A stretch of 64,000 bases of DNA from Arthrobacter sp. (lineage in GTDB: Bacteria; Actinomycetota; Actinomycetes; Actinomycetales; Micrococcaceae). The translations under genes and the position numbers were made by a program. The notes under the pieces were generated by a model. That model was not told where the DNA came from. It made no database searches and worked only from the letters and a program-made list of their open reading frames with translations. This document shows positions 5,260 to 62,616 of the stretch, in pieces (position 1 is the stretch's first letter; each line of letters begins with the position of its first letter). The stretch covers positions 117,135 to 181,134 of the forward strand of contig NZ_JBLXAH010000005.1 of the NCBI RefSeq assembly GCF_048266065.1, written 5' to 3'.

Positions 5260-6263
5260 TACTTCTTTGATTCCTGGTATGCCTTGACGACTTCCTTCGC
5301 CTCGCCGTCCATCTCCAGGACACCCTTATTGATCCAAAGCACCCGGTTGCACGTATCGAGGATCGACTTCATGGAGTGGGAGACGAGGAAAACCGTTCCG
5401 GCATCCTCTCTGATTTGCCGAATACGAGCCTCACTGCGTTTCCGGAAACGTGCATCACCGACGGCCAAAGCTTCATCCACGATGAGGATCTCATGTTGCT
5501 TTGAAGCGGCGATCGCAAATTTCAGGCGTGCAGACATTCCCGATGAATATGTGCGCATGGGCAGATCAATGAATTCCTCAAGCTCAGCAAAATCGACGAT
5601 ATCGTGCCGCATTTTCTCGATTTCCCTGCGGCTATAGCCGAGGGCCAGCCCACCAAGAGTAATGTTCTTGTCCCCGGAAAGATCCGGGATCAATGCGGCG
5701 CCAACGCCCAGCATATTCGGCCTTGAGGACGCGTATACCGCGCCAGAAGCCGGCGGTGTCAGACCCACGATACTGCGCATCAAGGTGGATTTTCCTGAAC
5801 CGTTGGAACCGATGACGCCAATAGATTCGTTTTCGTACGCCGTGAAGGAGACACCCTTCACCGCGTGCACTTCGCGTAGCCCCCGAGTAGTCGTCAGCAG
5901 ACGTCGGCCAGCGGCAGGTCCCGCCGATTTACCACTGGAGTACACCTTGTAGCGCACGTGAAGATCCTCTACGACGACGACCGGCTTTCGCCCCTCGTCG
6001 GCGCCGACCACCACAATTTGGCCATCCGGATCTTCCGTTGACTTACTACGAATGCTTGCCGCGGACGTCGCGTTCTTTGGGCGCCGGGAGACTCTTCGTG
6101 CGGCCCCACTATTCCGTTCCTTGCGTGGACCTGCAGTTGGACGCCCTGCCGAGACCTCGGCCTGCTTTTGCTCCGCGGCAATTCCTGCGAGGCCCCCCCG
6201 CTGCGCGCTCGATCTTGGCCCTCGCGGACGAATCAGCTCTTCAAAACTAGTCGACTCGTCCAT
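5259..6263 (-). CDS. Teichoic acid/polysaccharide export ABC ATP-binding subunit (TagH/Wzt-like)
   Basis: Walker A GSNGSGKS, signature YSSGM, Walker B ILIVDE. Start placed at ATG 6263 (MDESTS), overlapping the permease stop; low-complexity N-terminal extension. Confidence 0.88.
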   Translation of the reverse strand: MDESTSFEELIRPRGPRSSAQRGGLAGIAAEQKQAEVSAGRPTAGPRKERNSGAARRVSRRPKNATSAASIRSKSTEDPDGQIVVVGADEGRKPVVVVEDLHVRYKVYSSGKSAGPAAGRRLLTTTRGLREVHAVKGVSFTAYENESIGVIGSNGSGKSTLMRSIVGLTPPASGAVYASSRPNMLGVGAALIPDLSGDKNITLGGLALGYSRREIEKMRHDIVDFAELEEFIDLPMRTYSSGMSARLKFAIAASKQHEILIVDEALAVGDARFRKRSEARIRQIREDAGTVFLVSHSMKSILDTCNRVLWINKGVLEMDGEAKEVVKAYQESKK

Positions 6264-7092
6264 AGCGTTCCTCGGCTTTCCAAAAGAAGATGACCCCGAA
6301 GGCCAGCATGAGAACGGACCAGATCGAGAGAAAGGCCCAATATTCCACCGGATAATCGGTGCCCATGATGCAACCTCTGGCGATTTGCAACGTCTGGTAA
6401 ATGGGGTGGAAATCAAAAAGTGTGATCATCACGGGGAACATTTTGAGAATGCGGTCCACGGAGAACAGCACACCAGATGTGTAAAAAAGTACGCGAGTCA
6501 ACAGCGGAAGTAGGTGCGTCAGATCGCGAACATGGACGGTGAGGCGTGCACAGACCAACGCCACACCCGTGTTGAAGAGCGTATAGATTGCGACGAGCGG
6601 CAGGACAAGGAACCAGCTCCAACTGGGCCGCGCACCAAGAATCAGACAATAGACGTACATGACACCCAGCATGGGGACCAAGGTCAGCAGCTGCTGCAAA
6701 ACCGTCGACAGTGGAAGTGTGATGCGGGGAAACGACAACGATTGAACCAAGGCAGTATTGCCGGTGATGGACTTCGCACCTTGGCTCATGGACTGGCTGA
6801 AAAATTCAAAGAGAAAGACGCCAATGACGACGTACATTGGAAAGCCAGGTGGCTTACTGGATCCTTGAAGAACTCCGAAAATTGCTCCGTACATCAAGGC
6901 ATTCAAGGTTGGTTTGAGGACAACCCACAACATCCCCAGCCTATTTCGACCGTTACTCGCCTCTATCCGGCTTCGCGCCAATTCGTAGGCAAAATCGCGC
7001 CTACCCCATGCCTGCCGAATATACGGGATGAGTTTCGGACGTGCGCCGACGCGATGGAGCCCCTCAGGGCTGACGGAACTGACCACCGTCAT
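6247..7092 (-). CDS. ABC-2 type export permease (TagG/Wzm-like)
   Basis: Six predicted TM segments; LGMLWVVLKP, SLSFPR, RDLTHLLP motifs; coupled to the ATPase. Confidence 0.88.
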   Translation of the reverse strand: MTVVSSVSPEGLHRVGARPKLIPYIRQAWGRRDFAYELARSRIEASNGRNRLGMLWVVLKPTLNALMYGAIFGVLQGSSKPPGFPMYVVIGVFLFEFFSQSMSQGAKSITGNTALVQSLSFPRITLPLSTVLQQLLTLVPMLGVMYVYCLILGARPSWSWFLVLPLVAIYTLFNTGVALVCARLTVHVRDLTHLLPLLTRVLFYTSGVLFSVDRILKMFPVMITLFDFHPIYQTLQIARGCIMGTDYPVEYWAFLSIWSVLMLAFGVIFFWKAEERYGRVD

Positions 7093-7105
7093 GCGCTTTT
7101 GCTCC

Positions 7106-8158
7106 TCATTTTGTTGGGGTATCTAGCTTACCGAAGTAAGAATCCATCGTATCCGAGCGCAATGCCTTCCCCACACTTTCGACTGCCTGCTTGTCTTCAA
7201 GGACGATCGACTGGCCATCAGCCGATCGGGAGGTCCCGGCCGTGGGGAGGGTGAAGGAGTGGACGTCATCGGATCGGAGGTCCTTCAGCTGGAGCCCGAG
7301 TCCTGCGATCGTCTGCGCGTCAAATGACTGGTCCAGGGTCAGATAGGGGGACACCTTGTCGATGACCTGGTAGAGCGTTGCCGGATTGGTGAGCGTCTTC
7401 GCGGCCAGCATCTTGTCGATGACGGCGTTGAGGAATTTCTGCTGGTTCTTCACCCGCTGGTAGTCGCCGTCGATGAAGGACTTTCGTTCACGAACGAATC
7501 GCAGGGCGCGGTCGCCTTCAAGGTTCAATTCACCCACGGGGTAGAAGTAGTCGGTGTCGTTGGCCGTGAAGGCGATGTCGTTCTTGACCTTGACGCCGCC
7601 CAAGGCAGTCGTCAGGTCGCGGAATCCCTGGAAATCAACCACGGCCACGTGGTCGATCTTCGTGTCGAAGAGGCCCTCGAATGTCTGGACGACGAGCGGG
7701 ACACCGCCGAAGGCCATGGCGGAGTTGATCTTGTTCTGCCCATGCCCGGGGATTTCCAACCAGGTGTCGCGCATGACGGACATGACGTAGACGCCCTTGC
7801 GGTCGGCCGGGACGTGCACCAGCATCATCGTGTCCGATCGCTGGCCGGTCCCGCCGTGTTCAAGGACGTTGCCGGTCACCTGGTTGGCACCGCCGAAGTC
7901 CGCTCCCATGAGCAGGATGTTCATCGACGAGTCACCGGGATCCTTGACCGGGCGCCCTTCCTCGTCGGGGAACGCCGAGGCCAGCGTCTCCGTCTGGCCG
8001 TCAAAGGTGTTGGCCAACGTCAGGACGTACCCGCCGGCCACCATGACGGCAATGACGACAACTGAGGCGACGGCGATGAGAACCGTCCGAGCCCGGTGCT
8101 TCTTCGGTGGCGCCATGCGGCGCGCGACATACTCCGGTTCAGGCCCTGAGCTCTTCAA
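7106..8158 (-). CDS. LCP (LytR-CpsA-Psr) family wall-polymer ligase, copy 1
   Basis: N-terminal TM anchor; LMGAD, RSDTMMLVH, RDTW, KINSA, VRER, GDYQRVKNQ. True start may be 8116. Confidence 0.9.
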   Translation of the reverse strand: MKSSGPEPEYVARRMAPPKKHRARTVLIAVASVVVIAVMVAGGYVLTLANTFDGQTETLASAFPDEEGRPVKDPGDSSMNILLMGADFGGANQVTGNVLEHGGTGQRSDTMMLVHVPADRKGVYVMSVMRDTWLEIPGHGQNKINSAMAFGGVPLVVQTFEGLFDTKIDHVAVVDFQGFRDLTTALGGVKVKNDIAFTANDTDYFYPVGELNLEGDRALRFVRERKSFIDGDYQRVKNQQKFLNAVIDKMLAAKTLTNPATLYQVIDKVSPYLTLDQSFDAQTIAGLGLQLKDLRSDDVHSFTLPTAGTSRSADGQSIVLEDKQAVESVGKALRSDTMDSYFGKLDTPTK

Positions 8159-8291
8159 GTGTTCTCCCGTGGGGACACATCCGCGACACCATGTGGAGCG
8201 GTTGGTCGACCCATGTCAAATAGTCGGTGGTGAAACAGCAAGTTTAAGGCCCATTTCTGGGAACAAGCTGTGCACCTGCGGTAGGGGAAGT

Positions 8292-9194
8292 CTAACGGTC
8301 CAGCCCCGCGACGAAGTCCTTGAGCCAGGGAACCAGGTCCCCGCCCAGGTCCTCGCGTTCTGCGGCCAACGAGATGACTGCCTTGATGTAGCTCAACTTG
8401 TCGCCGGTATCATAGCGCCGACCGCGGAAGACCACGGCGTACACACCGCCGCCCGGAGCGTCGCTGGCGGCCAGTTCCTGCAAGGCATCCGTCAACTGGA
8501 TCTCGTTCCCGCGGCCCGGCTTCGTCCGTTCCAGGACCTCGAAGACGGACGGGTGGAGAACATAACGTCCAATGACCGCCAGGTTGGAGGGGGCCTCGGT
8601 GGGGTCCGGCTTTTCCACCAGCCCGTTGACCCGCACGTAGTCCTTGCCCTCGACAACGGTGACGTCAGCACAGCCGTACGCACCGATCTGCGATGGCTCG
8701 ACCTCCATGACGGCGATGACCGAACCGCCGGTTTCCTGCTGGACGCGGATCATCTCGCTGAGCAGCTCGTCGCGTTCATCGATCAGGTCATCCCCCAGCA
8801 GCACGGCGAAGGGTTCGTCGCCGACGTGCAGCTTGGCACACAACACCGCGTGGCCCAGCCCCTGGGGGTCGCCCTGTCGAACGTAGTGGATGTCGCCGAG
8901 TGCCGTGGCCTCTTGGACCAGCTCCAGCTTCTTGGTGTCGCCCTTGTCGGCGAGCACGGCTTCGAGGCTGGGAACCCGGTCGAAATGGTCCTCCAGGGCC
9001 CGCTTGCTGCGCCCGGTGATCATCAGGACGTCACTCAGGCCCGCCTTCGACGCCTCGGCCACCACATACTGGATGGCCGGCTTGTCGACGACGGGAATCA
9101 TTTCCTTCGGCATGGCCTTGGTGGCGGGCAGGAAGCGGGTCCCCAGGCCCGCGGCGGGGATCACAGCTTTCGTGATGCGCGTGGTCTCAGTCAT
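8292..9194 (-). CDS. galU: UTP-glucose-1-phosphate uridylyltransferase
   Basis: KAVIPAAGLGTRFLPATKAMPKEM, GLGHAV, VEKP, EIQLTDA. Confidence 0.95.
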   Translation of the reverse strand: MTETTRITKAVIPAAGLGTRFLPATKAMPKEMIPVVDKPAIQYVVAEASKAGLSDVLMITGRSKRALEDHFDRVPSLEAVLADKGDTKKLELVQEATALGDIHYVRQGDPQGLGHAVLCAKLHVGDEPFAVLLGDDLIDERDELLSEMIRVQQETGGSVIAVMEVEPSQIGAYGCADVTVVEGKDYVRVNGLVEKPDPTEAPSNLAVIGRYVLHPSVFEVLERTKPGRGNEIQLTDALQELAASDAPGGGVYAVVFRGRRYDTGDKLSYIKAVISLAAEREDLGGDLVPWLKDFVAGLDR

Positions 9195-15527: not shown

Positions 15528-16559
15528 TTAGAGCCCGTGCGAACGCACGAATTCGTCGACGTTATCGTGTGACAAGGCGGTGGCCAATTCATCGATGGCG
15601 TCATTGTCGGGAAGCACGATGGACTGCCCGTCCGCCGAGCGCCCCGTGCCGAGGTTCGGCAGCGTGAAGAAGTGCATGTCCTTGCTGCGCACACCTGCCA
15701 GTGACACTCCGAGTTTGCCAACTTCAACTGCACCGAAGCTTTCGTCGACAGCGACGTAGGGAGAAATTTCGTTGACTACGTCTGAAAGCTTGGCCGGGTT
15801 GGCCAGTGTTTCGGGAGTCATCAGCTTCGAAACCACTGCTTTAATAAAGCTCTGTTGATTCTTCACACGCTGGTAGTCACCATCTTTGAACGATTTCCGT
15901 TCGCGAACGAAGGCCAGAGCCTTATCGCCGACCAAATGCGTTTTGCCAGCCGTGAAGTCGTAGTGGCCATACCCGGAAGTGAAGCTCGTCGGGACATTGA
16001 CGTCGACGCCCCCAATGGCCTCCGTTAGGCCTTTAAAACCTTCCATGTCGATGGATGCGACATGGTCGATACGCGTGTCAAGAAGGGTCTCAATGGTCTG
16101 CACTGCCAATGGCACCCCGCCGTAGGAAAAAGCGGCGTTGATCTTGTGCGTGCCCTTGCCTGGAATCGGAACCCAGGTATCGCGCATAATCGACGTGACG
16201 AAGACATCCTTGCGGTCGGCAGGTACATGCACCAGCATGATGGTGTCCGAGCGTCCTGCGTTTGGTACACCATTCAGGTTTTCTTTTTCGCCTGAACCGC
16301 CACCTGAATCGCTACCGAGCAAAAGTATGTTCTTGGCGGAAGTGTCCTTCTTTTCTGGACGCAGCGTCTCGGCTGGGAACGCCGATTCGATCTTCTCGCT
16401 CTTGTTGTCAAAGCTCTTGGCCAACGAGAACAGATACCCCCCGGCAACGATGGCAGCGATCACGACGAGTGACAACAACGTGATGATCGTCGCCCGGACC
16501 GGATGATTCTTCTTGCGCTCCGGTTGCCCGTAGTCGTAATCCATGTTCTCTTCGGACAT
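15528..16559 (-). CDS. LCP family wall-polymer ligase, copy 2
   Basis: TM anchor; LLGSD, RSDTIMLVH, RDTW, KINAA, VRER, GDYQRVKNQ. Confidence 0.9.
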   Translation of the reverse strand: MSEENMDYDYGQPERKKNHPVRATIITLLSLVVIAAIVAGGYLFSLAKSFDNKSEKIESAFPAETLRPEKKDTSAKNILLLGSDSGGGSGEKENLNGVPNAGRSDTIMLVHVPADRKDVFVTSIMRDTWVPIPGKGTHKINAAFSYGGVPLAVQTIETLLDTRIDHVASIDMEGFKGLTEAIGGVDVNVPTSFTSGYGHYDFTAGKTHLVGDKALAFVRERKSFKDGDYQRVKNQQSFIKAVVSKLMTPETLANPAKLSDVVNEISPYVAVDESFGAVEVGKLGVSLAGVRSKDMHFFTLPNLGTGRSADGQSIVLPDNDAIDELATALSHDNVDEFVRSHGL

Positions 16560-16625
16560 GTCAGCCTTTCGTAGCCATGCTTGCCGTCCCATCCTAGCGG
16601 TGACCAGACGCGATACAGTGGATGG

Positions 16626-24527: not shown

Positions 24528-25157
24528 TCAGTATGGCCAGCTCCACCCACCATTGCTGTTGGGGTCGTAGACCACCGTTCCGCTCTCGTACGGGACATCC
24601 AGCACGATCTTGCCGCTGACCTTTTGTCCGGGGTTGACCAGCGCGGGTGCCAATACGTCGTCGCCCAGGCAGCCCCAGGCCGATTCGGAAGCCACTTTCC
24701 GGTCGATGACCCCGTGGGGGTCAGTGACCGAGAAGGCTTGGGACACCAGCGGCATGAACAGCTCATCCGCAGAGCCGGAGACTTCCTTCGAGATGCCGCG
24801 GTCCAGGCTGGCTTCGACATCGAGGATGAGGAAGGTGCCATTCTCCGGGGTCATTCGGAAATTGCCGACGCGGGCGGGACAATCCCGTGCCACGGTGATC
24901 TTGCTGACTTCCAGGGAGAAGAGCTTCTTTCCGTCTTCGGCTGCCAGGACGGCAGCGTCTCCGACGTCCTTTTCGACGTTGTCCAACCGGTCCGTGGTGA
25001 CGTCGGCACCGCTGGACGGGTCCACACTCAGGGCTTCGGGGCCCTGCTGCTGGAGCTCGGGTGCCTTCGTCGATTGGGCAGCCACGGTTCCGAGAACCAC
25101 CGACCCCGCCAGGACGACGGCGCCACCGGCAACACAGAGGGTGCGCTTGATGTTCAT
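24528..25157 (-). CDS. Secreted/anchored hypothetical protein, possibly DUF4352/MPT63-like Ig fold
   Basis: N-terminal signal or TM segment; C-terminal ..VNPGQKVSGKIVLDVP..VVYDP pattern; two Cys; 4 bp after the upstream stop. Confidence 0.5.
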   Translation of the reverse strand: MNIKRTLCVAGGAVVLAGSVVLGTVAAQSTKAPELQQQGPEALSVDPSSGADVTTDRLDNVEKDVGDAAVLAAEDGKKLFSLEVSKITVARDCPARVGNFRMTPENGTFLILDVEASLDRGISKEVSGSADELFMPLVSQAFSVTDPHGVIDRKVASESAWGCLGDDVLAPALVNPGQKVSGKIVLDVPYESGTVVYDPNSNGGWSWPY

Positions 25158-25161
25158 TGTC

Positions 25162-26559
25162 TCAGTACCTCTTCAGGTAATCGCCGGACGCCACGGGAAT
25201 GCCCGACTTTTTCATGTAGGTGGCCATCTTCTTCGACGCCACGTAGGCCCAGACCTTGGCCCCGGAGGCGTCGGTGACCAGCTTGCGGTTGTAGTTCTGG
25301 TTGTCCAACGGCTTCTTCGGGTCGAACCGCTCCCAGCTGTCCATGTTCCTCAGCGTGGCGGTGTGGAGTGACGGCTTGAACTTCATGCGCTCGACGACTA
25401 CCTGCCCAGTTTGGGTGCCGGGGACCATGTAGGACCACCAGGTCTTGTCCCGTCGCAGGTAGAGGTTGTGTCCGACGACGGTGGTCCTTTTCTCGGAGGA
25501 CGTCTTGCCCTTGATCAGGAAGTAGGCGGACTGCCCGTGGCGCAATGTCCCGTAGACCGCGACGTCGTAGCGGTCATGGGTGGAGAGGTACGTGTTCTTG
25601 ATCCATCCGGTTCCCCGGGTCGTCTTGACGTTGGACCATCCGGAGCGGGTCGCGAGGTATTCGACTTTGCTCCAGGCATTGATGGTCCCCAGGGAACGGT
25701 GCTTGGTGCCGTCGCCGGTCCGGACATTGACCTTGCTGGTGGCCCACCGGTAGGCCTTGGGTTTGAGGATGCTCACGGGCTTTTTTTTCAAGCCAGCCGA
25801 GCTGACCCAGCCTGCGCCGGAAGATGACTTGACGTAGTCCCAGCCGGATGTGGATCGGAACCATTCGACCTTGGTGTCCTTGGAAAAGGTCGCCGTCTTC
25901 TTGGCGCCGGCTCGGATCGTCGCAAAGCCCGCCATGGAGGACTTCGCCCAGCGGTACACGGGTGCCGGGTTCTTGTCGGACAAGGAGGCCGCTGGAACGT
26001 AGCCGGTCTTGGTGTTGACCTTGACCTGACGCCACGCGCCCGAGCTGCCCAGATACTGAACACGCGTCCTGCGCTGGATCCCGGTCACCGCCGTCGAGGA
26101 TGTGGATGCCGACTTCTGCAGGATCGTGTATTTCGTCATGTACCGGTAGACCGTTTTCGGTGCGGTGGTCTTCGTGGTGGTCTTGAGGTACTTCGAGCTG
26201 GCCCACCCGGTCTTGCCGGCCGCCTTGACCCGCCACCACTGTCCCGATTTCTTGCCGGTGGGGACCACGACGGTGCCCTTTTTCAGGACGGCTAGGCTGC
26301 GGTGTTTGGTGGCCGCCCCGGTCCGTAGGTGGACGTTCGCCGTCGTGCGGACAGTTTTCGCCGTGGTGGCCCGAGCAACACTCAGCCCAGCGGCGACCGG
26401 GGAGGCCGAGGACATCTGGGGCACCCCCGACGACGTCAGGGTTCCTTGTTGCGGCGCCGCGACCACGGCCATTTCCACAGCGTGGGCCGGAATGACGGGA
26501 GCACCCAGGAGGACCAGGCTCAGGACGACGCCGGCACCTCGTCTGAGGCGACGCCCCAT
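25162..26559 (-). CDS. Secreted protein: four SH3b domains + C-terminal gamma-glutamylcyclotransferase (GGACT/AIG2-like) domain
   Basis: Signal peptide ending AHA; four repeats such as VHLRTG..W.RVK..GKTGWASSKYL; C-terminal VAVYGTLRHG, MDSWER..YNR, VWAYV, SGDY. Confidence 0.8.
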   Translation of the reverse strand: MGRRLRRGAGVVLSLVLLGAPVIPAHAVEMAVVAAPQQGTLTSSGVPQMSSASPVAAGLSVARATTAKTVRTTANVHLRTGAATKHRSLAVLKKGTVVVPTGKKSGQWWRVKAAGKTGWASSKYLKTTTKTTAPKTVYRYMTKYTILQKSASTSSTAVTGIQRRTRVQYLGSSGAWRQVKVNTKTGYVPAASLSDKNPAPVYRWAKSSMAGFATIRAGAKKTATFSKDTKVEWFRSTSGWDYVKSSSGAGWVSSAGLKKKPVSILKPKAYRWATSKVNVRTGDGTKHRSLGTINAWSKVEYLATRSGWSNVKTTRGTGWIKNTYLSTHDRYDVAVYGTLRHGQSAYFLIKGKTSSEKRTTVVGHNLYLRRDKTWWSYMVPGTQTGQVVVERMKFKPSLHTATLRNMDSWERFDPKKPLDNQNYNRKLVTDASGAKVWAYVASKKMATYMKKSGIPVASGDYLKRY

Positions 26560-26703
26560 CTCGTCGATCCCGGTGCCGTCGTTTCCGCGACCGCGCGAAA
26601 ACGTGTACCCCCATGGCCCCATGAAAGCGCCTCTCCCCCATTTATCCAGCTGTACGAGCAAACCTGAAAAGCAGATTAGCCCACAAATGGGGGAATGAGA
26701 ATT

Positions 26704-27778: not shown

Positions 27779-29452
27779 TCAGCCACGGGCCCTCCGCACG
27801 GCATCGGCAAAGTCGTTGAAACGTTGGACTTCCGCGGCCACTGGTTCGGCGACCCCGCGACGGGCGACACGGGAGATTGATGCGGTCAACCTCCTGCGTG
27901 CCACCCGTGCACGACGGGAGGCCGCCATGCGGGCCAGGAGGCCTGTTGCCAGGCCCAGCACGATCCCCAGCAGGACCCCACCGACGAGCATCAGGGTTGG
28001 CACGGGAAAGCCCTCGACACGAGGGGCGGACGGAACATCGAGCTGCAGGTATCCCATGAGCGCCAACACGCCGAGCCAGCCGACTCCGCCCAACGCCACG
28101 GCGAGTGCGATCCACTGGAGAACGCCGACAATTGGCCACCACCAGGAACCCCGGCCCGCGCCGATGTCCGTGCGTGCGATCGCCTGGTCAAGCGTGTCCG
28201 TCAGAGTGTCTGAACTGGCACGTGCGGCGCGCCGAATGGATCCACGCCATGCTTCCGGGGCTCCGCTGCCGGCAAGCTCGGCGTAAGCGCGGACTGCGGA
28301 GTCGGCTTGGGCCCGCTGGGCAGGGCCAGGAGGGGGCAGGGATGTCCGGTTGACGGCCGGATTCACGTCCGTGCTGCTGAGGTTCAGCCGGCGTAGCGGA
28401 TCCGGCCGTAACCTTCCCAGCCAGCGAGTCACCGGCCATCCGGTGCGGGCGCGCGCCTTGAGCCGGTAGGACTTCCGAGTTGCCTCAACGACCGTTGCGA
28501 CGCCAGAAGCCTCGGCGAGTTGCTCGGACAGCCGCCGCTCTGCTGCCACTTGCGGCAGGGCAAGCCCCGATTCCCATGCCCTGCTGGCACCGGGGTCAAC
28601 AGCGGTCTCCCCAGCTGCCAATGCGTCGGCTGCGGCTGCGACGTCCTGCAGCAGCCGGTCGGTTGAAGCCGAGTGCTCGACTGCGACCGCGGCAATGGCC
28701 TCTCGGAGGCCCTCGATCCCCTCGCCACTCGTGGCGGAAACGGCGAGGATTCGGGGACGGCGCAGGCCTTCGGCCTCCAAGATGGACCGGAGTGATTTCA
28801 GTACGGGTCCACGGCTGTCGGCCCCGAGTCTGTCGATCTGGTTCAGCACCACGAGCGTGACACCGGAGTAGGAGGACATCGGCCGGATGAAATCATGGTG
28901 GACAGCGGCATCTGCGTACTTCTGCGGGTCGAGCACCCACACCAGGACATCCACCTGGCCGGCCAGGCGGGTCGACGTCTCGCGGTTCGCCGCGGTCGTC
29001 GAGTCGACATCCGGAAGATCGAGCAGGATAAGTCCGCTGGCCGACTCACGGTTCCGGCGCATCAGACCCGGCTTGACCGTGCCCAGAGGCTCGGCCAATT
29101 GGTGGCGCTCGCCAACCTGCAGCCAGTCCAGAAGTTCGGCAGCGCCTTCGGCTTCCCAGATGCCCGCGAGGGGCTCGCTGGTCGTGGGGCGCGTGGCTGC
29201 CGCGCGGGCGAGGTTGTGTCCGGTCACGGCGTTGAAGAGGGATGATTTCCCGCTGCCCGTGGCACCGAAAAAGCCCACGACCGTGTGCTCTGCGGAGAAG
29301 GACCGGCGCGCAGAAGCCCGTTCCACAACGGATTGTGCTTCTTCGATTCCTGTTTCCGTCACTCGTCCCTGACCGAGCTCGGTGGCCTGTTGCAGAGCCT
29401 CCAGCCTCAGCACGAGTGGTGAGGCCGCGCCGTCCTTGCGTCGTCGGCTCAT
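27779..29452 (-). CDS. Dynamin-like GTPase with C-terminal membrane hairpin (partner B)
   Basis: GATGSGKSS, RPTT, DLPDVD, DPQKYAD, LNQID; two C-terminal TM helices. Confidence 0.8.
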   Translation of the reverse strand: MSRRRKDGAASPLVLRLEALQQATELGQGRVTETGIEEAQSVVERASARRSFSAEHTVVGFFGATGSGKSSLFNAVTGHNLARAAATRPTTSEPLAGIWEAEGAAELLDWLQVGERHQLAEPLGTVKPGLMRRNRESASGLILLDLPDVDSTTAANRETSTRLAGQVDVLVWVLDPQKYADAAVHHDFIRPMSSYSGVTLVVLNQIDRLGADSRGPVLKSLRSILEAEGLRRPRILAVSATSGEGIEGLREAIAAVAVEHSASTDRLLQDVAAAADALAAGETAVDPGASRAWESGLALPQVAAERRLSEQLAEASGVATVVEATRKSYRLKARARTGWPVTRWLGRLRPDPLRRLNLSSTDVNPAVNRTSLPPPGPAQRAQADSAVRAYAELAGSGAPEAWRGSIRRAARASSDTLTDTLDQAIARTDIGAGRGSWWWPIVGVLQWIALAVALGGVGWLGVLALMGYLQLDVPSAPRVEGFPVPTLMLVGGVLLGIVLGLATGLLARMAASRRARVARRRLTASISRVARRGVAEPVAAEVQRFNDFADAVRRARG

Positions 29453-31233
29453 GGGGTGTTCCCCTGGGAGGCATCGGTCAGGGCATCGAGCCGTTGGGCT
29501 ATCGACGTCAATTCCGCAATGCCCGCTGGAGTCGGGACGGCCGTCAACAGGTCCAGGAAGCGGGTGCTTTCCTCTGCCAAGAGCCGTTGCACCCGCGAGT
29601 CCAACTTCTCCCGTGCCTGTTTCGCCAGGCGCCGTACGGCGTCCTCACCGAAAATCGCCTCCAGGAGTTTCTGGCCCACGATGGCTGATCCGCCGGCGAT
29701 GCCGACCTCCAGGCCGGTGAGTCCTGCGGTGGAGGCGAAAACGACGATCATCAGGGTCACGGCAACCCCGTTGATCCCGAAGGACACCATGCGGGCCGTG
29801 AAACGCTTGCCGGCCCCCTCGGAACGGATGATCTCCATGAGGTCGACTTGCCAGTCGCGGATCTCCGCGGCCACTCGGTCCCCAAAATCGGACGTGACGG
29901 AACCGAGGTCGGCGCCGCCCAGCAAACGACGGGCGGCGGGATCGGCGCGCCAGAAGGCGTCAGTTTGTTCGGCTGCCTTGGCGGCCTCGTCGATGATCAC
30001 GGCGTGGAGGCCGGTTTCGATGGCCTCCTCCACCTGTTCGACGGGCTGGGGACGTCCGTTGAAGAATGCGCCGATACGATCGCGGAGCCGCCCGATCCCC
30101 GACTCGAGGGAGCGGAAGAATTCGCCGGTGCCGACGAAGTCCTGCCAGCGCGCCAGGACTTCGCCGCGCAGAAGTGTTCCATCCTGGGTGGCCGCGCCGA
30201 TGCGCGCAGTGGCTGCGTCATAGGCCGCGGCGACATGCGCTGACAAGCGGGCACCGGCGTCGTGCTGCTGTTGTTCGGCGAAGGCGAGCCCGGCGGAACG
30301 TTCCCCGAGGCGGCTGACGGCACCGGCGAGTGTCCGGCGGGCGATGGTGGCACGCTCTGCCGCGTCTTCGGCGATGGCGGTCAGCCACTGTCGGATCGGC
30401 GTGACGATCGCGGCCGGGAGCATCCCCTTCCCGTTCAGTTCCGCTTCGGGAATCACGAAGAGTTCGGCAGCGTCAAGGCCTTGCCGCGCGAGCATGTTGC
30501 GCAGGTCCGAGGAGATCTCCTCTTCGACGCCCTCGGGAACCCTGTCGAGAATGACCGCCACCGTGATGTCGCGGGCTGCGGCATCAGCGAGTAGCTTCCA
30601 GGGGACGGCATCGGCGTAGCGGTTTGCCGTCGTGACGAAGAGCCACAGGTCCGCGGCGGAAAGGAGTTGGCCTGCGAGTTGGCGGTTGGCATCGGACACG
30701 GAGTCGATATCGGGTGCGTCAAGGAGCGCGATGCCTGCGGGAATGGCTTCATGCTCAAGTACCACCAGGGAGGTGTCGGCATCTGTGCCGTGCTCCGGCA
30801 GCCCACCAGCACCAGGCAGGTGCCCATCGGTGGCAGGCGTTTCGGTAATACGGCCCAAGTTGGGGAGGATGCGGTCGCTGAGGAACCAGGCGGCTTCGGT
30901 GGGGTGATGGAGGAGAATGGGCTGGCGGGTCGTGGGGCGGATGGCGCCGGCACGAGTCACTGGGTGTCCTACGATCGCATTGACCAAGGTGGATTTTCCT
31001 GCTCCCGTGGATCCGCCGACGACCGCGAGCAGCGGGGCGTCGAGGGTGCGGTAGCGGGGCAGGATGTAGTCGTCGAGTTGTTCGATGGCTCGGGCTACTC
31101 CAATGCGGGCGTCTGCTGCGCCCGGGAGATCAAGTGGCAGGTGAACGCCTTCGAGAGCCGTCCTGCATTCTTGGAGGAGCCCGACAGCAGCTTGGGCACC
31201 TGCCGCTTCACGGTCCGCCTCGTTCGTAGTCAC
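29449..31233 (-). CDS. Dynamin-like GTPase (partner A)
   Basis: GSTGAGKST, RPTT, DAPDID, long helical stalk, hydrophobic paddle. GTG start 31233 (the ORF-track extension runs over the tRNAs). Confidence 0.8.
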   Translation of the reverse strand: MTTNEADREAAGAQAAVGLLQECRTALEGVHLPLDLPGAADARIGVARAIEQLDDYILPRYRTLDAPLLAVVGGSTGAGKSTLVNAIVGHPVTRAGAIRPTTRQPILLHHPTEAAWFLSDRILPNLGRITETPATDGHLPGAGGLPEHGTDADTSLVVLEHEAIPAGIALLDAPDIDSVSDANRQLAGQLLSAADLWLFVTTANRYADAVPWKLLADAAARDITVAVILDRVPEGVEEEISSDLRNMLARQGLDAAELFVIPEAELNGKGMLPAAIVTPIRQWLTAIAEDAAERATIARRTLAGAVSRLGERSAGLAFAEQQQHDAGARLSAHVAAAYDAATARIGAATQDGTLLRGEVLARWQDFVGTGEFFRSLESGIGRLRDRIGAFFNGRPQPVEQVEEAIETGLHAVIIDEAAKAAEQTDAFWRADPAARRLLGGADLGSVTSDFGDRVAAEIRDWQVDLMEIIRSEGAGKRFTARMVSFGINGVAVTLMIVVFASTAGLTGLEVGIAGGSAIVGQKLLEAIFGEDAVRRLAKQAREKLDSRVQRLLAEESTRFLDLLTAVPTPAGIAELTSIAQRLDALTDASQGNTP

Positions 31234-31307
31234 GTGTCCATCATGCCAAACATGGACCAGAGCGCGTACCGCCACGGCCAACGGAGCAAGACCGGCCCTG
31301 GATAACG

Positions 31308-31338
31308 AAAAACGCGGTACACACCGAGGTGTACCGCG
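31308..31338 (-). terminator. Intrinsic terminator of the tRNA-Gln/tRNA-Glu transcript
   Basis: CGCGGTACAC-N6-GTGTACCGCG 10-bp stem followed by a T run on the minus strand. Confidence 0.8.
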
Positions 31339-31350
31339 AATTCCCAGACG

Positions 31351-31423
31351 TGACCCCAGCGGGATTCGAACCCGCGTTACCGCCGTGAGAGGGCAGCGTA
31401 CTAGGCCGCTATACGATGGGGCC
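31351..31423 (-). tRNA. tRNA-Glu(CTC)
   Basis: Minus strand GGCCCCATCGTATAGCGGCCTAGTACGCTGCC-CTCTCAC-GGCGGTAACGCGGGTTCGAATCCCGCTGGGGTCA; cloverleaf; CCA not encoded. Confidence 0.96.
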
Positions 31424-31487
31424 ATAGCTTGTCCGTCATACTCCCCGGACAATGCCAGCCGGCGCAGTGTCTGCTCCGGCTGTAGCG

Positions 31488-31559
31488 CTGGGATACCAGG
31501 ACTCGAACCTAGAATGTCGGTACCAGAAACCGATGTGTTGCCAATTACACCATATCCCA
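31488..31559 (-). tRNA. tRNA-Gln(CTG)
   Basis: Minus strand TGGGATATGGTGTAATTGGCAACACATCGGT-TTCTGGT-ACCGACATTCTAGGTTCGAGTCCTGGTATCCCAG. Confidence 0.96.
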
Positions 31560-31681
31560 ATGGTTTGCCGCGGCCCGTTCCCTGCCCTTTCGAGCTGTTC
31601 CCGGTGCCTCAGCACGAGAAATAACTTTACCCGAGGGCCCCGGCAAAACCAAAATCGTCCATCCAGTCGTCGCGGCGGACG

Positions 31682-37857: not shown

Positions 37858-40431
37858 CTATGCGGTTCCCATAACCCGTTCAAAATCGGCGACGGCGCGT
37901 CGATTATACTCTGCTGCGTCAAACTGAAACGCTGATCTCTCCGAGTCGATCGACGCCATCATGGCATCCGCTAATGCTTCGCTGGTCGGGGCAACGACAT
38001 TTCCGGCACCGCGCGGCAGCGCACCCTCTACGGATCCAAACGAGGTAGTGATGACTGGAAGTCCTAGAACGAGCGCTTCCAGAAGGACCATCGGCTGCCC
38101 TTCGTAGTCACTCGAGAGAACAAATACGTCAGAGTGCCTCATCAAAACGTAGGGATTGCGCGTAAACCCGACCATCTTAATCGCATTCTCCAGCCCAAGT
38201 GCGCGAACTTGCGCATCCAGCTTGGAGCGCAAGGGCCCGTCCCCGACAATAACGAGCCGAGTCAATGCATCGGCCTTGTGGACAATACTGAAGGCATTGA
38301 TTAGCCGAGAATGATTCTTTTCCGGCGACAGCCGACCGACAGTAATGAAAGTCTGATAGCGCTCAGCAGCCCCCTGGTTGGGAAGCTCTCCGGACTGACC
38401 GGCCGAGTAGCTGCTCCTGGGGTCAAGTAGCTCGTGGACAAGGCGTTCAACGATGTCACGCTCCTCCGGATCCAGCCCCGAATTGAATCCGCCGTGATGC
38501 TGGTCCGCAGGGAAGCCCATCCGAGACATCTGCAGAACTTTCTCGGCGTTAATCGTGTTGGGCGCGAAAGTGAATCGAGACGATGGTGCCCATTCCCACA
38601 GTGCCGAACTATTAATGGCGCTGAGACCAGCAGAGACAGACACAAGATTGTCGAAATGTTTATAGTTGCTGAACGTTGCTTGAAGGCCCTGCCTGAGCGG
38701 CTGATCACCATCGATCGAACGCAGTGCATCCGCCGCGAGATCGTTGTGTAGCCAAATGGACCGCGTCGCCTGCGGTCCACTGAGCAATAACATCCCCCAG
38801 AAAGGGGAGTATCCACTGAAATCAATCATGTGATCAAACTCAGCGTCGCCAAAACACCTAGTCCACTCCTGCCTCCAAATACGTTTAACGGAGGGAGACC
38901 TCGAAGCCCAATGCCCATCCCCGATCCGAAGAGCCTTTAATCGGAAGTAGTTCGGGATAACTTCGCCAGCAAAGCTTCCAAAGCGAAACATCACACGCGC
39001 TTGTGGATTGATCCTGGCGAAGTTGGCTTGTTTGTGTGGATCCTCGCTAAACGGGCAAAGAACTGTGACGTCGTAGCGCGAGTAATCTAGGCTGTCAAGC
39101 AAATTAAGTGCCGACGTGGTGATCCCATTTGGCTGCATTCCACCAACGTAAATTAGAAGACGTTTACGACCATCCGAGACATTCGACACGGCTCGGCTTT
39201 TGGAACGATTGCCGGCAAATACAACATCCACGACCCGTGCACAGACATTCCCATCATCATGAGGGAGAAACTGCTCGAGTTCCTCCATATATCGAGATGA
39301 GGGTAGGAACTCATCGGAAGACACAACGGAGGCAACCTCGAGCCCTAGACCATTTAGCGTTGTGGCAACCGGCCCGACGAATTCTTCGGGCACCGAATAA
39401 AGATCCCGGTAGGTACGGTATTCATCTAGGTCGGGAATGAAGAAGAGTACTGGCCGCTTACTGGGCAGGAAATCATAAAAGATGCTCGAATAATCTGTAA
39501 TCAACACCGCTGCCGCCCCCAGTACGACATTGGTCGGCACAGAATTTGGAACCATAACTCCCTCGAGTTCCGGATCCATTTGGGCTGCATCTGCGACGAC
39601 TTGATGGGCTTTAACCATTATTCTAAATTTGGCCGAATCGACTTGTTCTTGAAGGTGCCTAACGACACGAAGTAGATAGGCAGAATCCTGCTGAGGGCGA
39701 AAATAAGACGCCCCCTTCCAAGTTGGCGCATAGAGGATAATCCGACGCTTATCGACGGCCAGGCCACATTCGCCAAAGAGGGCGTCCAACTCGACCCGCG
39801 CCGCGGCTTCATCGCTCTGCCGATCCGTTCGCGGCAACCCTTCTTCAAGGATCGCCCCCGAATATATGTTCACGATTTTAAATGCTCTTCTATACAACCG
39901 TTCAGTCATTGCTGGCGAGGAAGACAGCAAATAGTCAGCGGCGAGAAAGTTCCGAATGATGTTCTTGGCATCAACTGCCCGCCCGATAATGTCGTAGCCC
40001 ATCTTCTTTAGCGGGATGCCGTGCCAAGTATTTACGTATATCTGACCAGGACGTTTGCAGAAAGGAGCTGGAAAGCTGACGTTATTGATCAGAAACTTGG
40101 ACGTAGAAAGTGCACGGTGATATTCCAGCGAACCATAACGAACGAAACTTACATTCGGGTGGTCGCGGAACTCAGACACCACTCCCGCATATCTCTCGAA
40201 GTCATTAAGCGCCCAGATGTGTTCGAGATGAGAATAGACAGGGTCGGCCAACAGAAAGCGAAAAATCGCCTCAGGACTACAGGTCATGCCATTTCCGGAG
40301 TAGGACTCATACAGAACGGTCGACTCTTCAATTGGAGCCCGGTGCCATCTACCTTTCGCCTCTGATACGGCTAGCCTCTTCGTGTGCCTGATCAAGTTGC
40401 CAAGGCTGTATTTGAAGTTCTTTACGCCCAT
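37858..40431 (-). CDS. TagF-like CDP-glycerol glycerophosphotransferase fused to a GT4 glycosyltransferase
   Basis: N-half: YESYSG, TWHGIPLKKMG, LYAPTWKG, LITDYSSIFYDF. C-half: GRLSPEKNH, SDYEGQPMVLLEA. Visibly more A/T-rich than its flanks. Confidence 0.88.
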   Translation of the reverse strand: MGVKNFKYSLGNLIRHTKRLAVSEAKGRWHRAPIEESTVLYESYSGNGMTCSPEAIFRFLLADPVYSHLEHIWALNDFERYAGVVSEFRDHPNVSFVRYGSLEYHRALSTSKFLINNVSFPAPFCKRPGQIYVNTWHGIPLKKMGYDIIGRAVDAKNIIRNFLAADYLLSSSPAMTERLYRRAFKIVNIYSGAILEEGLPRTDRQSDEAAARVELDALFGECGLAVDKRRIILYAPTWKGASYFRPQQDSAYLLRVVRHLQEQVDSAKFRIMVKAHQVVADAAQMDPELEGVMVPNSVPTNVVLGAAAVLITDYSSIFYDFLPSKRPVLFFIPDLDEYRTYRDLYSVPEEFVGPVATTLNGLGLEVASVVSSDEFLPSSRYMEELEQFLPHDDGNVCARVVDVVFAGNRSKSRAVSNVSDGRKRLLIYVGGMQPNGITTSALNLLDSLDYSRYDVTVLCPFSEDPHKQANFARINPQARVMFRFGSFAGEVIPNYFRLKALRIGDGHWASRSPSVKRIWRQEWTRCFGDAEFDHMIDFSGYSPFWGMLLLSGPQATRSIWLHNDLAADALRSIDGDQPLRQGLQATFSNYKHFDNLVSVSAGLSAINSSALWEWAPSSRFTFAPNTINAEKVLQMSRMGFPADQHHGGFNSGLDPEERDIVERLVHELLDPRSSYSAGQSGELPNQGAAERYQTFITVGRLSPEKNHSRLINAFSIVHKADALTRLVIVGDGPLRSKLDAQVRALGLENAIKMVGFTRNPYVLMRHSDVFVLSSDYEGQPMVLLEALVLGLPVITTSFGSVEGALPRGAGNVVAPTSEALADAMMASIDSERSAFQFDAAEYNRRAVADFERVMGTA

Positions 40432-40525
40432 CAGGCAGAAAAACCCAACACCAGAGATTTCATTTTTGGTCCCCCAACCGATTGCTGCCAACGTGGCATC
40501 GTCCTCTAAGAATTAATATGATTCC

Positions 40526-43731: not shown

Positions 43732-44889
43732 CTATTTGGAGAGGTTTCCGTCCCGGAAATCCTTGAAGACCGACTCCGTTTGGGAGGTGATGTTCAGGAT
43801 CGACTGGCGGTCCGCGCTCCACCCATAATCCGCAGTGGGAACACGATGCCCGACCTTCTTCAGGTCCGTCTGGTAGGCCCACGCACCAAACGTCAGCGCC
43901 TGCTCGGCGGTGAGATCGGTCACGACGTGCTTGTTCGCCGTGTCCAGCACCGTGGCCAGGCCCTCGGGCCCCTTGGCGATGGCGTAGGCGCCGATGCCCG
44001 TCAGCGTCAGGCCCTGGTTGAAGCTGCGGTCGAAGTCGCCCTTGGGCAGCGTCTTGCGTTCGCGGGAGAACCAGAAGGCGTCGTACCCGTCGACGTGGTG
44101 CTTGCCCTTCGGCACGGCCCTGACCTTCATGGGGGCGTTGATGGTGATGCCGCCGAGCTCGTCGATCATCTTCTGGAAGCCGGTGAAACCGGTCAGCACG
44201 TAGCCCTCGATGTCCAGGTCGGTCACCTGTGCGACCAGCTTGGCCTCCGCCGCGGGGCCGCCGCGGGTCATGGCGTTGTTGATCTTGGCCTTCCCGCCGC
44301 CGGGCTGGGTGACCCACAAATCCCGCGGGATGCCCATGACTCCGCCGCCGCCCTTGCCGTCGACGCCGACCACCTGCAGGGCGTCGGCGCGTTCGGCCGT
44401 GATCTTCTCGCCCTTCTTCTCCCGGGCGTCCGATCCCATCAGCAGCACATGTCGTTTGCCGCCCAGGGCTGCGTCCTTCACGCCGAGCGAGGGCCACCAG
44501 CCGCCGACTGCCGTCCAGGTGTCCTTTTTCTTCACCGCCAGGGTGACGTCCTTGCCGCTGGTCAGCACCGCGAAGTGCTGCCGGTTCCAGGTCCCCGCGG
44601 TGCCGGTGACCCGTGGGGTGCCCTGGGCCGCCTGGGCGTTCTTCAGAGCCGCGGTGGCCGGGCCGGACGTGGGCACGGTCTTCCCGGTGTAGAGCCTGGT
44701 GGCGAACGCGGTCAGTTCCTTCGAGAGGCCCTTCGACGCGATGGCCGGCTTCGGTGCCGCCGACGTCGATGCAGCGGTGGTCGGTGCCGGGCTCGGTGCG
44801 GGCTCGGCGGGCTTCGAGCAGCCGGTGAGCAGGGCCAGGGTCAACACGGGGGCGAGCACGGCGGCGGCAGTGGTGGAGCGCAGGGTCAT
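43732..44889 (-). CDS. LCP family protein, copy 3; lipoprotein with an extra N-terminal domain
   Basis: Lipobox LTGC; LMGSD, RADAL, IPRDLW, KINNA, SRER, GDFDRSFNQ. Confidence 0.85.
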   Translation of the reverse strand: MTLRSTTAAAVLAPVLTLALLTGCSKPAEPAPSPAPTTAASTSAAPKPAIASKGLSKELTAFATRLYTGKTVPTSGPATAALKNAQAAQGTPRVTGTAGTWNRQHFAVLTSGKDVTLAVKKKDTWTAVGGWWPSLGVKDAALGGKRHVLLMGSDAREKKGEKITAERADALQVVGVDGKGGGGVMGIPRDLWVTQPGGGKAKINNAMTRGGPAAEAKLVAQVTDLDIEGYVLTGFTGFQKMIDELGGITINAPMKVRAVPKGKHHVDGYDAFWFSRERKTLPKGDFDRSFNQGLTLTGIGAYAIAKGPEGLATVLDTANKHVVTDLTAEQALTFGAWAYQTDLKKVGHRVPTADYGWSADRQSILNITSQTESVFKDFRDGNLSK

Positions 44890-62501: not shown

Positions 62502-62616
62502 AAATTCGCGCTCAAAGTCATGGTGGATGATGGGTTGTGGATAACTATTCAACCGGGTTGATTTTCGGGTTAGGGTGTTTCAACGCCCACTTTTCACCGT
62601 CGATTCCGGAGGCCTC

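Follow-up and report, generated by a model that had tools for sequence, protein, structure and literature searches.

Can a bacterial cell wall be edited by an enzyme that removes gamma-glutamyl groups by cyclisation? This question is raised by a minus-strand gene in a 64,000-nucleotide stretch of DNA from an Arthrobacter sp. (assembly GCF_048266065.1, contig NZ_JBLXAH010000005.1, positions 117,135 to 181,134 of the forward strand), referred to here as the window. In an initial annotation, the gene product was read as a lone secreted enzyme, with four bacterial SH3 (SH3b) domains followed by a gamma-glutamylcyclotransferase domain of the GGACT type. We find that this enzyme is one half of a module, the other half being a small acidic protein encoded next to it. 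Taken together, the architecture, the fold, the conserved catalytic residues and the conserved linkage between enzyme and partner are matters on which we have very little doubt. Our best explanation of the whole, in which a wall-bound GGACT enzyme trims Glu branches and has a cognate partner at the membrane, has a probability of roughly 45%.

The C-terminal domain of the enzyme matches Pfam family PF06094 (residues 333-462 against profile positions 1-119 of 120; E 3.2e-11; 44.3 bits, compared with a gathering cutoff of 22.8), as do 59 of 62 clade members. Note that residue numbers for domains and motifs refer, unless stated, to a 465-residue reading of the protein. All the motifs picked out initially can be located: VYGTL (residues 335-339), MDSWER with E410, YNR and, near the C-terminus, WAYV and SGDY. 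We take YGTL to be the turn that binds the substrate carboxylate in GGCT-fold enzymes, as in structures of GGACT and GGCT. Conservation was assessed in two alignments, A2 (62 full-length relatives) and A3 (38 domain sequences). The putative catalytic Glu, and the Arg of the Y-x-R motif, are invariant in both. Y-G-T-L-R, the next G, the D of D-x-x-E and the Y of Y-x-R are kept in at least 90% of the full-length relatives. The picture in A3 is similar, with the Y of Y-x-R invariant. In a profile alignment to structure 3jub, the invariant Glu is placed opposite E82 of human GGACT. The suggestion that the catalytic Glu has been kept is borne out by these alignments.

Structural comparisons gave the same answer. 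Searched against solved structures, a profile of the 38 domains detected E. coli YtfP (4.9e-10), PH0828 (7.6e-7), 1vkb (9e-5), human GGACT (1e-4) and YkqA (3.6e-4). Entry 1vkb is presumably the mouse GGACT homologue. An AlphaFold2 model of the domain has a mean predicted local distance difference test score (pLDDT) of 96.2 and a predicted template modelling score of 0.89. In a Foldseek search of the PDB, each of the 20 best matches has the GGCT fold, as a whole protein or as a domain. Matches include PH0828 (1v30), c4763, the C-terminal domain of allophanate hydrolase, human GGACT with 5-oxoproline (3jud/3juc), YkqA (2qik), plant AIG2-like proteins, ChaC2 and GGCT. Hence, the model check returned the cyclotransferase fold that had been claimed. 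By sequence, fold and catalytic residues, we assign the domain to the GGACT/AIG2-like family, with a predicted GGACT fold in which the catalytic residues appear intact. Membership of a peptidoglycan hydrolase family was also considered and rejected; Pfam and NCBIfam yield SH3 and GGACT alone.

Proteins of this type are not confined to the window. A HMMER search over 1.84 billion cluster representatives returned 231 clusters at E<=1e-3, and 59 at E<=1e-10. The best matches are mostly between 300 and 680 amino acids long, with the domain at or near the C-terminus, and most start with a signal peptide. A Pfam scan of 62 representatives identified SH3_3 (15 proteins), FG-GAP (12) and SLH (4) as the modules fused to the domain, and more rarely choline-binding repeats (3), LGFP (3), CWB2 (1) and LRR (1). 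Except for FG-GAP and LRR, these are the standard wall-binding set of Gram-positive bacteria. We conclude that the window fusion is no isolated case, and that exported, wall-targeted GGACT proteins form, so far as their sequences indicate, a widespread family. The initial view of the window protein, as exported and targeted to the wall, thus extends to the clade. The domains themselves are distinctive. Between the Glu and Y-x-R, a loop of the form E-x-[FY]-[DN]-P-x-x-P-x-x-x-Q is present in 31 of 38 fused domains, compared with 20 of 60 standalone relatives. Similarly, the GGACT domain has a median isoelectric point (pI) of 9.5 in the exported clade (above 8 in 31 of 38), and 5.5 in small standalone relatives. 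Clade hosts with names are Actinomycetota: Paeniglutamicibacter, Glutamicibacter, Arthrobacter rhombi, A. halodurans, Neomicrococcus lactis, Galactobacter valiniphilus, Georgenia, Serinibacter and Bowdeniella. Public annotation describes family members merely as 'SH3 domain-containing protein' or 'gamma-glutamylcyclotransferase family protein'. Full-text searches found no publication on an enzyme of such architecture, in line with the initial remark that none was known to have been characterised.

The genes surrounding relatives also point to the wall. A wall glycopolymer cluster lies beside the enzyme gene in locus L012. In L014, the neighbours are an Rv3811-type Amidase_2 protein and two LCP ligases, in L015 an LGFP-VanY peptidase, and in L018 two LCP ligases with glycosyltransferases. 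The enzyme gene of L019 is accompanied by genes for SLH proteins, a CsaB-type pyruvyl transferase and a polysaccharide deacetylase. Together, fusion to wall modules and proximity to wall-biogenesis genes strengthen the case for a wall-directed role. Judged from its domain partners and gene context, the enzyme probably acts on the wall. A different setting was seen on the Bowdeniella-like contig of P0081 (L013:904-4855). Here, a gene encoding an FG-GAP-GGACT-partner fusion has as immediate neighbours 5-oxoprolinase-type genes (LamB/YcsF, and a fused CT_C_D/CT_A_B), together with those for an MFS transporter and a biotin carboxylase; the enzyme would be expected to yield 5-oxoproline. A link to 5-oxoprolinase as a general feature was rejected, being absent from the window and from L001-L010. 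An origin as a phage lysin was likewise rejected, because the catalytic domain gave 0 tblastn matches in 50,697 phage records, a scan of IMG/VR found none, and the locus lies among housekeeping genes. The enzyme gene had no match in PLSDB, which argues against carriage on a plasmid.

The initial picture of a single enzyme overlooked the adjacent gene, and must be replaced with that of a two-component module. The partner gene is co-oriented with the enzyme gene, and the short gap between the enzyme stop codon and the partner ATG suggests translational coupling. Across 20 loci examined, all 24 enzyme genes have the partner adjacent or fused. In the 11 close, SH3-type, loci (L001-L011), which came from a genome scan with the narrow alignment A1, a partner homologue directly follows every enzyme gene (11/11 loci). 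Among distant loci, whose enzymes carry other wall modules (LGFP in L015, SLH in L019, choline-binding/LRR in L016, and unclassified in L014, L017 and L018), the partner is likewise adjacent (6/6), with profile E values from 1e-38 to 3e-16. It lies immediately downstream in these cases, except for L014, where it is upstream. In P0078, P0081 and P0082, the partner domain follows GGACT within a single polypeptide (pairwise BLASTP 1e-8, 3e-9 and 6e-10). P0083 and P0094, which were outside profile building, carry the partner domain too (E 6e-11 and 2e-6). We conclude that fusion, and strict adjacency, mark what appears to be a conserved two-gene module with a previously unannotated partner family.

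The partner has three parts: an N-terminal signal peptide or membrane anchor, a disordered acidic stalk of ~30-40 residues, and a beta-sandwich. Several orthologues have a lipobox at the N-terminus instead of the signal or anchor, and this argues for attachment of the partner to the outer face of the membrane. The mature window partner has a pI of 4.3, with a range of 4.0-5.1 across loci. Hence, the basic enzyme domain and acidic partner have complementary charges. No Pfam family was detected for the window partner, even at E<=10, and no NCBI family; a weak trace of DUF1942 (E 0.08) appeared in one fused homologue alone. In the structural model, block-mean pLDDT is 75-96 from residue 61. Foldseek matched the model to MPT63 of M. 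tuberculosis (1lmi; 2e-5) and B. subtilis YxkC (9a4z; 2.2e-5). Entry 9a4z is YxkC modelled in complex with the peptidoglycan carboxypeptidase DacA. Further matches were 5bxg, YcdA (4r4g) and YjhA (3cfu), and the proteins matched include CD630_09570. The modelled partner is therefore best described as having an MPT63-like beta-sandwich fold, with a sequence outside the MPT63/DUF1942 and DUF4352 Pfam models.

Copy number of the partner, and of the pair, varies. The whole pair is duplicated in tandem in L003, L004, L008 and L010 (Paeniglutamicibacter spp. and Arthrobacter sp. C2), giving two [SH3-GGACT][partner] units within ~4-5 kb. In L019 (5050-6227), two tandem partner paralogues, one of 201 amino acids and the other a 173-amino acid lipoprotein, follow a single SLH-GGACT gene. 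This extra partner, without an extra enzyme, resembles orphan immunity genes. Some partner copies have in-frame stops or frameshifts (L006:5396-6080, L010:3124-3942 and L011:5309-6051). L006 and L010 come from metagenome-assembled genomes, L011 from a draft assembly of an isolate. The copies could be pseudogenes, or the defects errors of assembly.

What might such a module do? Enzymes of the GGACT family need a gamma-glutamyl group with a free alpha-amine, and release 5-oxoproline and an amine with neither water nor a cofactor. Such chemistry suits an extracytoplasmic enzyme. The textbook GGACT substrate is N-epsilon-(gamma-glutamyl)-lysine. Ordinary stem peptides lack a gamma-glutamyl group of this kind, since L-Ala acylates the alpha-amine of their D-iGlu. 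In the explanation we prefer, the first protein would be exported by its signal peptide and held in peptidoglycan by four basic SH3b domains. Its GGACT-fold domain would need no cofactor, and appears to retain every residue known to matter for catalysis. The alpha-amine of the gamma-glutamyl group would cyclise onto the gamma-carbonyl, yielding 5-oxoproline and a free amine without water. As substrate, the best candidate would be Glu at the N-terminal end of interpeptide branches that have not been cross-linked, in peptidoglycan of the Glu-bridged (A4/A5) type. Such a free branch, if gamma-linked, would in an L-Lys<-L-Glu wall be N-epsilon-(gamma-glutamyl)-lysine. The enzyme may thus trim free Glu acceptors of the mature wall. 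The second protein, probably coupled in translation to the first, would present an acidic beta-sandwich on a flexible stalk at the outer face of the membrane. It would be the cognate binding partner of the enzyme, most likely an inhibitor or guard. Being close to the membrane, it could bind the basic catalytic domain, and so keep the enzyme away from lipid II and from nascent strands, which would need bridge Glu as the cross-linking acceptor. Two parts of this scheme are tentative: bridge-terminal gamma-Glu, although the substrate we favour, is less likely than not to be the true one, and the same holds for inhibition of the enzyme by its partner.

Host wall chemistry was compared with this scheme. 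Glutamicibacters were reportedly defined, by Busse in 2016, by Glu in an A4alpha bridge. Georgenia, like Beutenbergia and Bogoriella, possesses a bridge of the L-Lys<-L-Glu kind (PMC3035217), and relatives of Actinomyces have A5alpha L-Lys-L-Lys-D-Glu peptidoglycan (PMC6113628). Hosts with reported Glu bridges are therefore consistent with the A4alpha idea of the initial annotation. Several points weigh against bridge trimming. The bridge chemistry requires gamma-linked Glu, and an alpha linkage would make it impossible. The link to peptidoglycan type is anecdotal, and confounded by phylogeny; most clade members are on metagenome contigs. In addition, the Foldseek matches include the C-terminal domain of allophanate hydrolase, an example of the GGCT fold in a protein that is not a cyclotransferase. 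Natural fusions fit an accessory, or substrate-binding, partner at least as well as an inhibitor. Finally, adjacency to 5-oxoprolinase genes is a single case (L013), the PxpBC-like match in L011 being ~4 kb downstream of the pair.

Three other explanations have to be set against bridge trimming. The pair could be an interbacterial weapon with its immunity protein. The enzyme would diffuse to neighbouring Glu-bridged actinobacteria and strip acceptor Glu, or another essential gamma-glutamyl group, so blocking cross-linking, while the partner would block the active site in the producer. We consider this unlikely, although it would account for why a small acidic partner, exported or a lipoprotein, is invariably adjacent to a basic enzyme. 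The duplicated pairs described above, and the extra L019 partner, resemble effector-immunity arrays. Moreover, the genomic place of the pair differs between genera, and the SH3 region diverges faster (72-77% identity) than the neighbouring leuC and IclR regulator genes (93-98%). Conversely, a single polypeptide combines enzyme and partner in five cluster representatives, an unusual arrangement for a toxin and its immunity protein. Genes for secretion systems, bacteriocin export or mobile elements are absent nearby, 0 copies were found on plasmids or phages, and the pair occupies a conserved housekeeping stretch (thiL, leuCD and ddl) in the window and two related genomes.

A nutritional role has less to recommend it. 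In this case, the enzyme would be a wall-anchored scavenger of extracellular gamma-glutamyl compounds (gamma-glutamyl peptides, glutathione, ends of poly-gamma-glutamate or transglutaminase-type isopeptides). The 5-oxoproline would be imported and opened to glutamate, and SH3b would merely retain the enzyme. The known GGACT mechanism, free of cofactors, suits an exoenzyme, and the L013 gene is flanked by pxpA, pxpBC and an MFS transporter gene; the PxpBC-like match near the L011 pair is weaker support. We nevertheless think a scavenger improbable, since transporter and 5-oxoprolinase genes are absent near the pair in the window and L001-L010, the recurrent contexts are wall biogenesis, not nutrient uptake, and it is not obvious why a scavenger would need a partner that is strictly conserved and tethered to the membrane. 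Scarcely easier to credit is a GGACT-fold domain with some other job at the wall, as a binding module or acting on another bond, with the partner as co-receptor or chaperone. Examples of such targets are the stem gamma-D-Glu, after cleavage by an L-Ala-D-Glu endopeptidase, or a wall glycopolymer substituent. The fold has been reused, in the allophanate hydrolase C-terminal domain and a Paulinella transit-peptide domain, and the clade-specific loop after the Glu could signal changed specificity. Fusions to SLH, CWB2, choline-binding and LGFP modules hint at wall contexts beyond Glu-bridged peptidoglycan. Set against this, YGTL, the Glu and Y-x-R are invariant, or nearly so, clade-wide. A catalytic signature this close to invariant argues that catalysis of the type known for the family has been retained.

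To our knowledge, enzymes that cut wall peptides are hydrolases. The clade might, on a speculative view, comprise the first peptidoglycan-editing enzymes to cut a wall peptide bond by cyclisation, each a 'lytic cyclotransferase' with a dedicated, membrane-tethered beta-sandwich inhibitor that would limit where it acts. On the same view, which we put forward tentatively, free gamma-Glu acceptors would be removed as 5-oxoproline by a two-component remodelling or warfare system of A4/A5-walled Actinomycetota. If true, a wall-bound cyclotransferase would be new chemistry in wall remodelling. It would account for the means by which bacteria with Glu-bridged walls might control surface charge, or how many cross-linking acceptors are free, and would link wall turnover to 5-oxoproline metabolism. 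If antibacterial, the enzyme would be a narrow-spectrum agent against one wall chemotype. The conserved partner makes a ready enzyme-regulator pair, and gives a first functional handle on an unannotated MPT63-like beta-sandwich family.

The enzyme was also compared with known systems. Human GGACT/A2LD1 (3JUB, 3JUC and 3JUD) shares PF06094, the fold (Foldseek E ~2e-4, template modelling score ~0.55), YGTL and the Glu equivalent to E82. Furthermore, its substrate gamma-Glu-epsilon-Lys is chemically the same as a gamma-linked L-Lys<-L-Glu side branch. However, human GGACT is a cytosolic, single-domain enzyme that acts on free isopeptide from protein breakdown, and identity is ~20%. The window enzyme is exported and basic, and has four SH3b domains, the clade-specific loop after the Glu and an obligatory partner. 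The closest solved relatives, by profile and fold, are the AIG2-like/UPF0131 proteins YtfP (E. coli), PH0828 (P. horikoshii) and YkqA (B. subtilis). These share a C-terminal SGDW/SGDF motif but are small, cytosolic and uncharacterised, without signal peptide, wall modules or such a partner gene. BtrG, from butirosin biosynthesis, is a GGACT-family enzyme of bacteria, and trims a gamma-glutamyl group off an amine in the form of 5-oxoproline. This is the type of trimming reaction proposed here. BtrG is cytoplasmic, a tailoring enzyme from an antibiotic gene cluster, whereas the window enzyme is exported and the context of its relatives is wall biogenesis. We know of no characterised member among GGACT, GGCT, ChaC and BtrG that is exported, fused to wall repeats or paired with a dedicated partner. 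One bacterial enzyme of the GGCT superfamily that acts outside the cytoplasm of its producer is RipAY of Ralstonia, a ChaC-like gamma-glutamyl cyclotransferase and type III effector. Unlike the window enzyme, RipAY is a ChaC-family protein that destroys glutathione in plant cells after injection, and has no wall modules or such partner.

In its layout, the protein resembles modular wall hydrolases of Gram-positive bacteria, such as lysostaphin/ALE-1 and LytA, in which a single catalytic domain is combined with a signal peptide and with wall-binding repeats that can be interchanged. The binding modules of such hydrolases are of the SH3b, LysM, SLH, choline-binding, CWB2 or LGFP type, and the clade draws on this repertoire. 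The difference lies in chemistry: these enzymes hydrolyse, as amidases or peptidases, while intramolecular cyclisation is predicted for the window domain. Lytic transglycosylases offer a conceptual parallel, with an intramolecular nucleophile and a cyclic product (1,6-anhydroMurNAc, compared with 5-oxoproline), but have unrelated folds and cleave the glycan strand, not peptide. The arrangement of enzyme and partner recalls Tae/Tai-type pairs of type VI secretion systems, and B. subtilis IseA, where a small exported or lipoprotein partner of opposite charge accompanies a wall-active enzyme. In contrast to Tae/Tai-type pairs, the window pair has no association with a secretion system, and natural enzyme-partner fusions exist.

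Coordinates of the features are collected in Table 1. Note that the translation start differs from that assumed initially. The minus-strand open reading frame (ORF) containing the enzyme gene is 25162..26661, with the stop codon at 25162-25164. Reading from the ATG at 26559, as in the initial annotation, gives the 465-residue protein and translates as described. However, the start is probably the ATG at 26622, giving 486 residues. The reason is that L001, L002 and P0006 preserve, as protein, the 21 residues before the 26559 Met (G-P-W-G-Y-x-F-x-R-x-R..DG), and all three lack a Met at the position of the 26559 start. In addition, GGGGGAGAGG precedes the 26622 ATG with 7-nt spacing, and the database gene call P0004 begins at 26622. 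A putative signal peptide, as originally described, can be seen in the sequence. Read by eye, the n-region is Arg-rich, the h-region GAGVVLSLVLLGAPVI is 16 residues long, and AHA precedes V. With the start at 26622, the n-region becomes unusually long, as well as Arg-rich. In the window (26560-26622), L001, L002 and P0006, the Arg-rich and hydrophobic part comes after a motif, G-[AP]-W-G-[YN]-x-[FL]-x-R-x-R-x-x-D-G. This conserved leader gives an n-region of ~28 residues, and could be a Tat-type signal or a regulatory leader. The N-termini of homologues have comparable signal peptides. Export would be by Sec, or possibly Tat. The enzyme contains no Cys, and is very basic, as claimed, with a pI of 10.7-10.8 and 80 K+R compared with 18 D+E. 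A promoter scan found no promoter-like site, and terminator-like sites occurred at chance frequency in a terminator scan. The sequencing runs that contain the sequence are of DNA or metagenomes.

Table 1. Positions of the enzyme and partner genes, and their features, in the window.
Feature	Position	Strand	Description and basis
Enzyme gene, probable full length	25162..26622	-	486 aa plus stop; ORF list, identical to database call P0004
Shine-Dalgarno-like GGGGGAGAGG	26630..26639	-	7 nt upstream of ATG 26622; read from sequence
Signal peptide	26479..26622	-	putative, with MGPWGYTFSRGRGNDGTGIDE-MGRRLRRG n-region, h-region GAGVVLSLVLLGAPVI, AHA before V; read from sequence
SH3b domain 1	26185..26355	-	residues 69-125; Pfam SH3_3 best stretch 75-126
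SH3b domain 2	25981..26151	-	residues 137-193; Pfam SH3_3 stretch, boundaries from repeat pattern
SH3b domain 3	25789..25959	-	residues 201-257; Pfam SH3_3 stretch, boundaries from repeat pattern
SH3b domain 4	25585..25755	-	residues 269-325; Pfam SH3_3, NCBIfam TIGR04211 SH3 stretch 276-329
GGACT/AIG2-like domain	25165..25572	-	residues 330-465; Pfam PF06094, PDB profile, AlphaFold2, Foldseek
YGTL motif	25543..25554	-	residues 336-339; conserved in relatives
Putative catalytic Glu	25330..25332	-	E410 (465-aa numbering), E431 (486-aa numbering); conservation, alignment to E82
Y-N-R	25285..25293	-	residues 423-425; conserved in relatives
GAAGAGG Shine-Dalgarno of partner	25168..25174	-	inside 3' end of enzyme gene; read from sequence
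Partner gene	24528..25157	-	209 aa; ORF 4 nt after enzyme stop, co-oriented
Partner N-terminal hydrophobic signal/membrane anchor	25074..25157	-	residues 1-28; read from sequence
Partner beta-sandwich	24531..24980	-	residues ~60-209; model pLDDT, Foldseek
Partner invariant Cys C93	24879-24881	-	homologue alignments
Partner invariant Cys C163	24669-24671	-	homologue alignments

The four SH3 domains of the initial annotation are recovered by Pfam, with SH3_3 matching at E 1.1e-29 in 4 stretches; SH3_4 and SH3_2 also match. An NCBIfam scan of the enzyme gave SH3-type similarities alone. The SH3 region has a pI of 11.1. From membership of the SH3_3 family, the high pI and the swapping of modules in relatives, we infer that the array binds peptidoglycan. 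Paralogues in Glutamicibacter, Paeniglutamicibacter and Zafaria (P0028, P0034-P0036, P0043-P0044 and P0054) have arrays of up to 7 SH3b domains, and a C-terminal PF26571 domain instead of GGACT. The C-terminal domain of the P0028 type matches PDB entry 9flh ('LysM domain-containing protein'; E 7.6e-9), has H-x6-D and H-x-H-like motifs, and is probably a wall peptidase. The SH3b array thus behaves as a swappable targeting module, because similar arrays carry another C-terminal domain (P0028, Glutamicibacter).

The genomic setting of the pair was also considered. The order on the minus strand is gltX with tRNA-Gln/Glu, two dynamin-like GTPase genes, thiL, the enzyme gene and the partner gene. 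An IclR regulator (plus strand), leuC, leuD, a murA-like gene, plsC, gpsA, ddl and an LCP ligase gene follow the partner. This order is kept in Micrococcaceae bacterium RIT 802 and Arthrobacter sp. JSM 101049. In these genomes, identity is 97-99% for the IclR regulator and 93-94% for leuC, and 72-77% for the enzyme overall, with 92-93% in the catalytic domain. In Paeniglutamicibacter, the window neighbours are absent from ~5 kb either side of the pair. The enzyme-partner pair appears to move, and duplicate, as a unit. The window contains no second copy of the enzyme.

Other genes in the window were also noted. An 877-amino acid protein, a TagF-like CDP-glycerol glycerophosphotransferase fused to a GT1 glycosyltransferase, is encoded at 37858-40491 (minus strand). 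This is the lowest-GC stretch of the window (0.53, compared with ~0.65), which suggests a horizontally acquired wall teichoic-acid-type gene. A lower-GC block at 4192-9194 (minus strand; GC 0.58 at 4-8 kb) encodes a GT2 glycosyltransferase, a TagH/TagG-like ABC-2 exporter pair, an LCP ligase and a nucleotidyl transferase, and looks like a cluster for export and attachment of wall glycopolymer. Additional LCP genes are at 15528-16592 and near 44000-44450. Just downstream of gltX, tRNA-Glu(CTC) and tRNA-Gln(CTG) occupy 31350-31559 (minus strand), inside a listed 703-amino acid ORF (29449-31560). Hence, the true start of this dynamin-like GTPase gene, one of two in tandem at 27779-31350, must be downstream of 31350. 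Finally, a DUF6318-family protein is encoded at 62575-63285 (plus strand), in the low-GC end of the window (0.56 at 62-64 kb).

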